This document shows, piece after piece, positions 15,101-16,837 of a DNA stretch of 64,000 nt. A model generated the notes under the pieces. That model did not search any database. It was given only the letters and a program-made list of their open reading frames with translations, and was not told the origin of the DNA. The stretch is from positions 6,712 to 70,711 of the forward strand of contig CAZKDZ010000203.1 of assembly GCA_964551635.1 (NCBI GenBank). The letters run 5' to 3'. The stretch is from an uncultured bacterium. Its GTDB lineage: Bacteria > Latescibacterota > UBA2968 > GCA-2709665. How positions within the stretch are numbered: position 1 is the first letter of the stretch; each line of letters opens with the position of its first letter. Both the position numbers and the translations under genes were made by a program.

Positions 15101-16837
15101 TTACGATTCAAGAAAGTAGCTGTCATTCAATTCCGGATTAGGCACGAAATCGCTCGTCACTAAGTATAATTCCCCTTCCTCGTCGGCAAGACGCTTGATG
15201 CGGTCAAGCGCTGCATTCACGCGCTTGCAATCCGGGTCGTTCAAATAGAAGCGATGCTCGTGCAGCCAATTCCGATGCTGATGGTAATCAACGAGCTTTG
15301 CCTTCTCTAGTGCATCTATGGCCGTGCTCAACGTCGCTCGCGATATCCTTGGTCTTAGCAGAGGAATGATGTCTACAGTGCGGTCGTCAGACACAACTAT
15401 CGCCAGCCGAGGCGTCTCGGACGCTTCAACGTACCGAATGCCGGAGTTAAATCGAGCGCCACGAGAAGGTGTGCATTTTTCATTGGCCGGACCATCGAGT
15501 ATCACACCGATTGCGTGACAATTACCGGACGGATCCAGGATAATGGTACCGTCAATATTGCTAACCTGTTGCAAGAGATCCTTCGTCATCAAGGTGGGGC
15601 GAACGAGGGTACCCTGGTGGGTCAAGCGTGCCGCCTCTTCGGCGGCGTCTTCTGCCACCACGATCATACTACCGTGCTCCTGTGTCTCGGCGACCTCAAA
15701 GAGTTTCCAGATCCTCTCTGCGTCTTCTTCAGTCGCTAAGTGAAATAGACGGCTGAAGTTGTCCAAGAAGAGTTCCCGTTCCACCGGTTTCTGAGGACAC
15801 TTCGGTTCGCCGTAGGTACTTCTGAGCAGCACATCATCGCCACATCTAATCTGCCAAACATATTGTTCAAGTACGTCGATCTCGAAAATGTCTTCGCTCG
15901 ACGCTTGGTGGTCGTCAGAAACGTTGCCAAGACCGTATATCTGATTTCCGTCGGCGACAAGTGGTACGCCATTCGTTGCCATCTGTAACATCTTCCTAGC
16001 CCATCGGGTCTCCAGCATTGGTACCGGTTTTTCTAACGTAAGCTTCCAATTGAGATGTCGGTTATCCGGCTTAGCAAGGAGTATCGTTCCCCGTCCTTGT
16101 GTCCCTTCGTACAGCAATGATGAAATCCCGTTGAATTGTTCGAAAATGCCGGACCAGACAAAGTTCCCTAGTGCCATTCCTAGACTCATCATAAATGTCT
16201 CGGCCGCAGCTCGTACAATTTCACGGGCGCTACGCATATGCTCGCATAGGTCTCTGCCCGGCTCATCCCTTTGCAAATCGGAAGTAGCGTCGGAAAGTAG
16301 CTCAGACATCGCGGCCTGAATGAAACCTTGGTGCCCGCCTACGACATCGTTCCCAATCGGATTCAGAAGCGAAGGAAATGCTTTGGATATTCTCGACGGA
16401 ACTTGCATTACAGGAACTACGTAGAACTCACCAACGGGCACCGCGGTACCGCAGAAGGAAAGTACTTGCTTCGCGCTATCGTATGCCTTGAGTGCCTGGA
16501 CAACCGCTATTCTTACTGAATCTCGGCGAATCCGTTCGGGTTTGTCCCGCATACTCTGGTCGTCACTGTAGAATACATCCTGCAATGTGTGCCGCTCAAT
16601 CGTCCGCTCAACATCCTCCAATAACCCGTCAAACAGCTTGGCAGAGCATTCACCATACTCTGGCTCCACACAAACTGCGTTTCTGTTGTCGCTATCCGGT
16701 CTCCGTGCGCCCACGAGCAGCGCGACTGGCTCCAAGTCGACGCCTACGACTTCGAACAAGCTTCTTCCAAGACGTTCCAAACTGACACGAAAGTAATGCT
16801 GGTAGCCCCACATAAACTGTTGGATGATGTGTACCAT
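15101..16837 (-). CDS. DisA_N/diadenylate-cyclase (DAC)-like protein with a large uncharacterised N-terminal region
   Basis: 578-aa ORF. Residues ~400-510 (HGSMIVVAEDAAEEA...MTKDLLQQVSNIDGTIILDPSGNCHAIGVILDG...SRGARFNSGIRYVEASETPRLAIVVSDDRTVDII) are collinear with the CdaA/DisA DAC core remembered as GALIVI...LHDGAVII...[31 protein letters not shown]. The start lies 3 nt after the stop of the upstream 2-TM gene. Confidence 0.6.
   Translation of the reverse strand: MVHIIQQFMWGYQHYFRVSLERLGRSLFEVVGVDLEPVALLVGARRPDSDNRNAVCVEPEYGECSAKLFDGLLEDVERTIERHTLQDVFYSDDQSMRDKPERIRRDSVRIAVVQALKAYDSAKQVLSFCGTAVPVGEFYVVPVMQVPSRISKAFPSLLNPIGNDVVGGHQGFIQAAMSELLSDATSDLQRDEPGRDLCEHMRSAREIVRAAAETFMMSLGMALGNFVWSGIFEQFNGISSLLYEGTQGRGTILLAKPDNRHLNWKLTLEKPVPMLETRWARKMLQMATNGVPLVADGNQIYGLGNVSDDHQASSEDIFEIDVLEQYVWQIRCGDDVLLRSTYGEPKCPQKPVERELFLDNFSRLFHLATEEDAERIWKLFEVAETQEHGSMIVVAEDAAEEAARLTHQGTLVRPTLMTKDLLQQVSNIDGTIILDPSGNCHAIGVILDGPANEKCTPSRGARFNSGIRYVEASETPRLAIVVSDDRTVDIIPLLRPRISRATLSTAIDALEKAKLVDYHQHRNWLHEHRFYLNDPDCKRVNAALDRIKRLADEEGELYLVTSDFVPNPELNDSYFLES

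Follow-up and report, generated by a model that had tools for sequence, protein, structure and literature searches.

The window studied here is a stretch of 64,000 nucleotides (nt) from an uncultured Latescibacterota bacterium (contig CAZKDZ010000203.1 of assembly GCA_964551635.1). It contains a gene for a diadenylate cyclase (DAC) of the CdaG/DS-2C family, which is intact and, as predicted from its sequence, catalytically competent (Table 1). The gene is paired with a gene for a Cap15-like 2TM-beta effector, and no cGAS/DncV-like nucleotidyltransferase (CD-NTase) could be detected with them. The two genes probably form a module similar to a cyclic-oligonucleotide-based antiphage signalling system (CBASS) but without a CD-NTase, in which the signal of a regulated cyclase would activate the effector and abort the infection. 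The original prediction, which was made from the letters of the DNA, had singled out the gene for the altered catalytic motifs of its DAC-like domain and for about 390 amino acids (aa) of unassigned N-terminal sequence. Both points are now explained, the first by a signature of the family and the second by two named Pfam domains. As a recognisable member of a curated and recently validated defence family, the gene is ordinary. The remaining interest lies in the minimal arrangement of an effector and a CdaG cyclase in a host that uses cyclic di-AMP (c-di-AMP), and in the dead-DAC nature proposed below for the DACNH domain.

The open reading frame (ORF) of the cyclase, whose translation begins MVHIIQQFMWGYQHYFRVS, is intact and has the full length of the family. 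It scores 710.8 bits against the NCBIfam equivalog NF053872 (DS2_3_antiphage), for which the cut-off is 630, and it covers profile positions 1-576 of 576. The protein has a sequence identity of 46% over 577 aa to DS-2C of E. coli (WP_001593457.1, 581 aa). Residues D429-G430 and R462 align with D433-G434 and R466 of that protein, which carries the same set of DGT, R-Y-N and SDD motifs. An N-terminal DACNG domain, a DACNH domain that precedes the DAC domain, and the catalytic Asp-Gly and Arg are all present. This order of domains, with a C-terminal helical bundle, is that of the CdaG family, and the window protein shows no protein-level difference from the family as described in papers that cite Galperin (2023, J Bacteriol 205:e0002323). 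It also shares its full-length architecture, its approximate length and its motifs with DS-2C, the third gene of the defence system DS-2 (DefensePredictor, Science 2026, PMC13092281). The closest homologues of the cyclase, which are metagenomic, have identities of 95%, 88% and 81%, and the family comprises 2216 cluster representatives at E<=1e-3.

Proteins of about 575 aa have been assigned to the CdaG family, which is enriched in defence neighbourhoods; some of its genes adjoin those of a 2TM-beta protein and a CD-NTase (10.64898/2026.08.10.743972). Three Bacteroidota DS-2C proteins yield c-di-AMP in vitro without an added activator (10.64898/2026.08.10.743927); the Bacteroidota loci in the set examined here likewise have R-Y-N. 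The DS-2 system, which consists of a patatin phospholipase, a cGAS-like CD-NTase and a DAC, is reported to protect E. coli, and point mutants of the DAC to lose defence (PMC13092281). Supplementary Table S11 of that paper names the mutants as D433A and 'R468A'. D433 is the Asp of DGT and corresponds to D429 here. The second label does not agree with the sequence: residue 468 of WP_001593457.1 translates as Asn, and the Arg of the motif is R466.

The catalytic segment, residues ~353-494, is a genuine DAC domain, as had been proposed from the letters alone. Pfam DAC (PF02457) matches the cyclase with 39.4 bits (gathering score 27, E 5e-10). The AlphaFold2 (AF2) model of the whole protein, built on 120 homologues, has a mean predicted local distance difference test score (pLDDT) of 94.6 and a predicted template modelling score (pTM) of 0.88, and a Foldseek search with this model matched DisA and CdaA with E about 1e-6 to 1e-5. 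VIA-align superposed the modelled residues ~353-494 on DisA, CdaA, DacM and CdaM (3c1y, 7dg0, 2fb5, 9g69) with Z-scores of 12.5-13.0; the superposition on DAC-only chains gave a root mean square deviation (rmsd) of 2.6-3.0 Å across 122-135 residues. Comparison of folds was used because searches of the sequences in the Protein Data Bank (PDB), with the cyclase and also with a 45-sequence family profile, found no DAC chain, their sole match being a chance one (E 0.044). The motifs GSMIVV (389-394), IDGTIIL (428-434), ARFN (461-464) and VVSDDRT (481-487), as well as a second G-rich strand, occur in the translation in the order in which they had been listed. Their register relative to canonical DACs, first set by eye, was reproduced by hhalign, which paired them with RRGALVV, HDGALVM, GTRHA and VVSEERG of the host's own CdaA-like protein; this alignment is not significant (probability 0.4%, E 0.15) and served for the register only. 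Aligned to single canonical DACs, the cyclase family likewise fell into the expected register without significance. The assignment follows from the Pfam score, the Foldseek matches and the VIA-align superposition, and hhalign is not counted towards it. The residues of interest in the domain are G389, D429-G430-T431, I446-L447-D448-G449, R459-G460-A461-R462-F463-N464-S465 and S483-D484-D485.

The active site departs from that of canonical DACs of the CdaA/DisA type. DGT and RFN are found instead of DGA and RHR, so that the Asp, the Gly and the first Arg are kept, while other residues take the place of the His and the second Arg. A further segment, AIGVILDG.A, which the original prediction did not list, is present family-wide where canonical DACs carry LPLS. 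These positions are highly conserved. When the cyclase is aligned with its 120 nearest homologues, at identities of 47-95%, G389 and G430 are found in 121/121 sequences, and D429, R462, N464, S483 and D485 in 120/121 each; position 463 is Y or F. Among 120 cluster representatives, whose identity reaches down to 27%, G430 and N464 never vary, and conservation is at least 90% at each of D429, R459, G460, R462, S465, R468, Y469, S483 and D485. The D-G, R-[YF]-N and S-[DE]-D motifs are thus near-invariant over ~200 relatives with identity down to 27%. The same holds on a wider phyletic scale: the motifs IDG[TAS], RG[AS]R[YF]NS.RY and S[DE]D recur across more than 10 phyla in a set of 75 genome loci, whose sources include Pseudomonadota, Acidobacteriota, Bacteroidota, Actinomycetota, Chloroflexota, Cyanobacteriota, Planctomycetota, Bacillota and one Methanobrevibacter. 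The comparisons indicate that DG[TAS], G[AS]R[YF]NS, S[DE]D and ILDG are the conserved active-site signature of the family and not a product of decay, and they support the view that the changed positions are under selection.

It had been suggested that the protein could be a nucleotide-binding sensor that synthesises nothing, and the domain could also be imagined to be decaying. The replacement of the His and of the second Arg of RHR, and the failure of the family profile to find any PDB DAC by sequence alone, are in line with such a protein, which we nevertheless regard as highly improbable. Invariance extends to the replaced positions (N464, with Y or F at 463), the D-G, the Arg and the S-D/E-D are kept across phyla, the ORF is undamaged, and relatives are active enzymes. 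The D433 mutant of DS-2C is reported to lose defence (PMC13092281). The second Arg of RHR appears to be dispensable, since the two canonical DACs of the host read GTRHA and GARHV at this position and the minimal defence DAC PanS reads GGR. In PanS, the product is contacted by D71, G72, G107 and R108, and mutants of the DGF and GGR motifs lose synthesis (10.64898/2026.08.10.743972 and 10.64898/2026.08.10.743927). The family signature retains the Asp-Gly and Gly-Arg that PanS needs. Absence of conservation at the D-G and R-F-N positions within the subfamily had been named as the sign of a decaying domain, and decay is refuted by the conservation data.

The N-terminal region is occupied by two domains, DACNG and DACNH, both of which Pfam describes as probably sensory, their function being unknown. 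It can no longer be called unassigned or devoid of a nameable motif, and the proposal that it contains the sensing part is plausible. In the search with the whole model, DACNG showed a weak resemblance to Roadblock/LC7/MglB and GAF folds (Z 5.1-6.3, rmsd 3.4-4.5 Å), and hhalign found nothing between DACNG and the DAC sub-alignment. DACNH, modelled alone with a pLDDT of 87.7, was compared with ~48,000 PDB representatives. Z-scores of 5 or more were obtained only for six DAC domains, from DisA, DacM, CdaA and CdaM (Z 7.1-9.0 over 103-118 aligned residues), and the next match had Z 3.2. The hhalign comparison of DACNH with DAC sub-alignments was not significant (probability 7%), so the duplication is seen in structure only. 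Based on these models, we put forward as new that DACNH is a second copy of the DAC fold and is catalytically dead; a DAC fold for this domain is in keeping with a remark in Nabhani et al. The G-rich strand GRGTILLAKPDN, residues 248-259, would be strand 1 of this dead copy. Shorter relatives, H15-H19 from Bacillus/Priestia plasmids and the phage-encoded H21 (Bacillus phage PHBA67-J, PP858851.1, 20657-21589), match residues ~222-492 only and thus have DACNH and DAC without DACNG. The tandem of DACNH and DAC therefore also occurs independently.

The C-terminal helical bundle, residues 496-578, is conserved and had been left out of the original prediction. In the model it consists of helices 500-512, 518-527 and 534-553. 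Residues W524, R529, F530, C537, N541 and Y574 are invariant among the 45 nearest homologues. Comparison of folds gave generic helical-bundle matches only, with Z<=7.

The stop codon of the effector gene lies 3 nt before the ATG of the cyclase. The effector matches Pfam Cap15_CD_rec (PF18153, E 6.7e-16), the PADLOC CBASS '2TM effector' profile PDLC00694 (E 3e-68, residues 35-239) and, by phmmer, the solved structure of YaCap15, 7n34 (E 4e-4). In loci that contain a CD-NTase, a 2TM-beta gene and CdaG, the 2TM-beta genes share an identity of 52-55% with it, and the same effector lineage therefore occurs with and without a CD-NTase. No CD-NTase is found in the island around the pair, and the Pfam SMODS profile finds none in the assembly, which is 95% complete. 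A profile for DS-2-type CD-NTases, made from related loci, had no significant match among all six-frame ORFs of the assembly, and a search of the assembly for the DncV-like family found no CD-NTase, the control of this last search being uninformative. No CapV-type patatin lies near the cyclase, whose neighbours are hsdM, the Cap15-like gene and a 290-aa ORF. The only patatin-profile match in the assembly is a weak one, 33.7 bits, to a 748-aa frame on another contig.

To place this arrangement among its relatives, genes within three of the cyclase were surveyed in 77 genome loci and the window, with partner families confirmed by Pfam. A patatin and a CD-NTase (the DS-2 type) are found at 17 loci, a CD-NTase and a 2TM-beta gene at 8, a 2TM-beta gene without a CD-NTase at 8 (the window and 7 of the 77 others), a patatin only at 3, a patatin and a 2TM-beta gene at 1, and none of these at 41. 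The eight loci with a 2TM-beta gene and no CD-NTase are those of the window, Crenothrix, Methylomonas, Archangium, two Moraxellaceae and two Alphaproteobacteria. Five CD-NTase-free loci were checked (L003, L004, L027, L029 and L056): in 4/5, no gap separates the effector gene from that of the cyclase, and SMODS has no match at all in three of the five genomes and a match on another contig in the other two. Among the 7 other CD-NTase-free pairings, the cyclases closest to that of the window are those of Crenothrix and Methylomonas. In the tree of the cyclases, the window protein is placed near these two with a support of 81, so that neighbours in the tree share the same pairing.

The module can be compared with several known systems. 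DS-2 combines a patatin phospholipase and a cGAS-like CD-NTase with the DAC, whereas the only partner of the window cyclase is the Cap15-like 2TM-beta protein; neither an adjacent CD-NTase nor an adjacent patatin is present. Type I CBASS with Cap15, exemplified by YaCap15 (PDB 7n34), uses the same effector family, with its cyclic-dinucleotide receptor β-barrel, and presumably proceeds from a cyclic dinucleotide to membrane disruption. Its synthase is a CD-NTase of the Pol-beta type, while the synthase in the window has the DAC fold. PanDA and Panoptoo (bioRxiv 10.64898/2026.08.10.743972 and 10.64898/2026.08.10.743927) likewise are two-gene systems of a DAC synthase and an operonic 2TM-beta effector in defence islands, and the Asp-Gly and Gly-Arg core is kept in them as in the window cyclase. 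However, their synthase PanS has ~150 aa and no regulatory domains, acts constitutively and represses its effector, whereas the window cyclase has 578 aa with DACNG, DACNH and the C-terminal bundle as three extra conserved domains. Finally, housekeeping CdaA and DisA share the catalytic fold, the D-G, the first Arg and the acidic metal site. They differ in RHR and LPLS, where the window cyclase has R[YF]N and ILDG, and in their regulatory domains, and the window cyclase, unlike them, lies in a defence island.

The reading that we favour is a CBASS-like module that lacks a CD-NTase. A phage cue, which is the trigger that we infer, would act on DACNG/DACNH and thereby permit two DAC domains to pair productively. 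The enzyme would make c-di-AMP, or else a cyclic dinucleotide very similar to it, which would bind the β-barrel of the effector, residues ~97-248, and the effector would disrupt the membrane and so abort the infection. The domain identities, the folds, the conservation of the motifs, the operon linkage and the lack of a detectable CD-NTase come from the present analysis; that relatives make c-di-AMP, and that DS-2 defence needs the Asp of the DAC, is taken from the literature. The large conserved regulatory domains suggest regulated synthesis. An activating rather than a repressing signal is favoured because the nearest relatives of the effector are effectors of CD-NTase-containing (CBASS) operons, and because DS-2 with a dead cyclase loses defence, whereas a dead cyclase in PanDA unleashes toxicity.

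The opposite direction would correspond to the guard or decoy logic of PanDA/Panoptoo and Panoptes, in which a constitutive cyclic dinucleotide holds the 2TM-beta effector inactive. Once cyclic dinucleotides are removed by phage sponges or nucleases, the effector is released and the cell dies. We consider such logic for the window pair possible but clearly less probable. The only tested pairs of a DAC and a 2TM-beta protein, PanS/PanE, work in this way, DS-2C proteins need no activator in vitro, and CdaG genes, like Panoptes and PanDA, are often found beside CBASS operons. The DS-2 operon of E. coli (L085, NZ_CP021722.1, 2138977-2147664), made of genes for the patatin, the nucleotidyltransferase and DS-2C, is directly upstream of a complete CapV-DncV-Cap2-Cap3 CBASS. 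However, the ~350 aa of conserved regulatory domains set the window protein apart from the minimal PanS, the reported loss of defence in dead-cyclase DS-2 differs from the toxicity of dead PanS, and the closest relatives of the effector serve operons that contain a CD-NTase. A dedicated decoy synthase would also be redundant in this host, where two housekeeping DACs would already supply c-di-AMP.

Several points weigh against the CBASS-like module that we favour. The activity of DS-2C in vitro without an activator fits constitutive as well as regulated synthesis (10.64898/2026.08.10.743927). PanS and PanE, the DAC and 2TM-beta pairs studied so far, use the opposite logic (10.64898/2026.08.10.743972 and 10.64898/2026.08.10.743927), and the DS-2 mutants are reported for loss of defence (PMC13092281), which does not settle toxicity. 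The DGT/SDD clade, to which the window protein belongs, has no reported enzyme of identified product. Since two canonical DACs are encoded by the host, its cells should contain c-di-AMP in any case, and a pore-former activated by c-di-AMP would require either a threshold or some other ligand.

The canonical DACs of the host are found on contigs C39 and C16 (L001, L002). One has 380 aa and is of the CdaA type, with CdaA_N and YbbR domains and named relatives in Gemmatimonadota; the other is a 296-aa form. Such canonical DACs occur in 7/35 genomes in which CdaG is partnered, that is, stands beside a CD-NTase, patatin or 2TM-beta gene, as compared with 29/39 genomes with a partner-less CdaG; related genomes share these labels, and the difference should be read as a pattern, not as the outcome of a statistical test. 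The counts come from a six-frame Pfam DAC search, which misses CdaG domains of the proteobacterial type, that of the window included; other CdaG domains give weak scores of 37-51 bits in frames of about 580-920 aa, and canonical DACs were separated from them by score. In c-di-AMP-using hosts, CdaG may act through the c-di-AMP receptors of the host.

The presence of two housekeeping DACs also bears on the product. The original prediction had raised changed chemistry or a changed product, which is made less probable by the three Bacteroidota members that synthesise c-di-AMP. With the same architecture and partner, the cyclase could make something other than 3'3'-c-di-AMP, such as a mixed-base or differently linked dinucleotide that is orthogonal to the c-di-AMP of the host, and this overlaps with both the CBASS-like and the guard schemes. 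We think it rather unlikely. The host is one of at least five genomes (that of the window, L012, L016, L022 and L027) that combine canonical DACs with a CdaG beside a 2TM-beta effector, and PanS shows that DAC domains are capable of making 3'3'-cUA. The window clade differs from the tested Bacteroidota clade in DGT versus DGA, SDD versus SED, and C455 versus Gly. On the other hand, the AIGVILDG.A segment, which aligns with the base-contacting LPLS, and RG[AS]R[YF]NS are common to both clades, and 28 of the 35 genomes with a partnered CdaG are without canonical DACs, so orthogonality is no general need. An extended form of the CBASS-like scheme, to which we give a similarly low probability, is a self-sufficient CD-NTase-free pathway in which DACNH, as a pseudo-partner, would block the pairing of DAC domains until the cue binds DACNG, and in which the signal would be distinct from housekeeping 3'3'-c-di-AMP in hosts that use c-di-AMP.

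Two 2026 preprints (10.64898/2026.08.10.743972 and 10.64898/2026.08.10.743927) and the DefensePredictor paper describe CdaG/DS-2C as active and required, and the sensed cue and the effector that reads the signal are not given there. In DS-2, these questions are confounded by the second cyclase (cGAS). Loci like that of the window, which have a cyclase and an effector alone, would make it possible to test cleanly whether a DAC that bears a sensor can drive a Cap15-type effector, and in which direction. The dead-DAC assignment of DACNH and the uneven occurrence of canonical DACs beside partnered and partner-less CdaG sharpen further work on the family.

Table 1 Cyclase gene, its domains and the surrounding features of the window.
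Feature	Position (nt)	Strand	Description and basis
CdaG/DS-2C-family diadenylate cyclase gene	15101..16837	(-)	578 aa, intact; Pfam, NCBIfam, AF2 model
DACNG domain, putative sensor	16190..16813	(-)	residues 9-216; Pfam PF21752, E 1.7e-56, profile 1-208/208
DACNH domain	15842..16150	(-)	residues 230-332; Pfam PF21750, E 5e-27; modelled DAC fold without catalytic motifs
Catalytic DAC domain	15356..15781	(-)	residues ~353-494; Pfam PF02457, fold matches, column conservation
C-terminal helical bundle, conserved	15104..15352	(-)	residues 496-578; AF2 model, homologue alignment
Cap15-like 2TM-beta effector	16841..17587	(-)	longest ORF 248 aa; probable start ATG 17491, giving 216 aa
Promoter-like site	17507..17536	(-)	TGGACA-N18-TACCAT, 9/12 matches; just upstream of probable effector start
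hsdM	17644-20085	(-)	island gene, adjoins effector gene
290-aa ORF	14118-14990	(-)	110 nt downstream of cyclase; no family match
hsdS	12692-14059	(-)	island gene
PDC-S06/AAA_13 ATPase, looks broken	10112-12699	(-)	two ORFs, 256 aa and 567 aa
DUF6978 and DUF1828 pair (PDC-M24B-like)	8168-9454	(-)	upstream of TIR-like gene; between hsdS and hsdR
TIR-like gene	7117-7992	(-)	291 aa; weak PADLOC TIR-effector match, E 1.7e-8; between hsdS and hsdR
hsdR	3834-6980	(-)	island gene
YgjP	3110-3844	(-)	island gene
HEC-01 pair (AAA_21 ATPase and DUF4276)	505-2465	(-)	PADLOC HEC-01 A/B, E 1.8e-154 and 1.4e-83

The effector and the cyclase are cargo inside a type I restriction-modification locus on a defence island of low GC content, 52% as compared with 59.6% for the rest of the window. 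Promoter-like sites are as numerous in the region as expected from shuffled sequence, so the site upstream of the effector is weak evidence for a promoter. The 290-aa ORF has no Pfam, NCBIfam or PADLOC match; it was considered as a third component and rejected, as no homologue stands beside CdaG in the 77 other loci and none is found elsewhere in the host genome. The PDC-S06 ATPase gene looks broken because its two ORFs match successive parts of a single PADLOC profile of 862 positions, the 256-aa ORF positions 1-254 and the 567-aa ORF positions 303-860. The HEC-01 genes form another defence pair, at the edge of the island.

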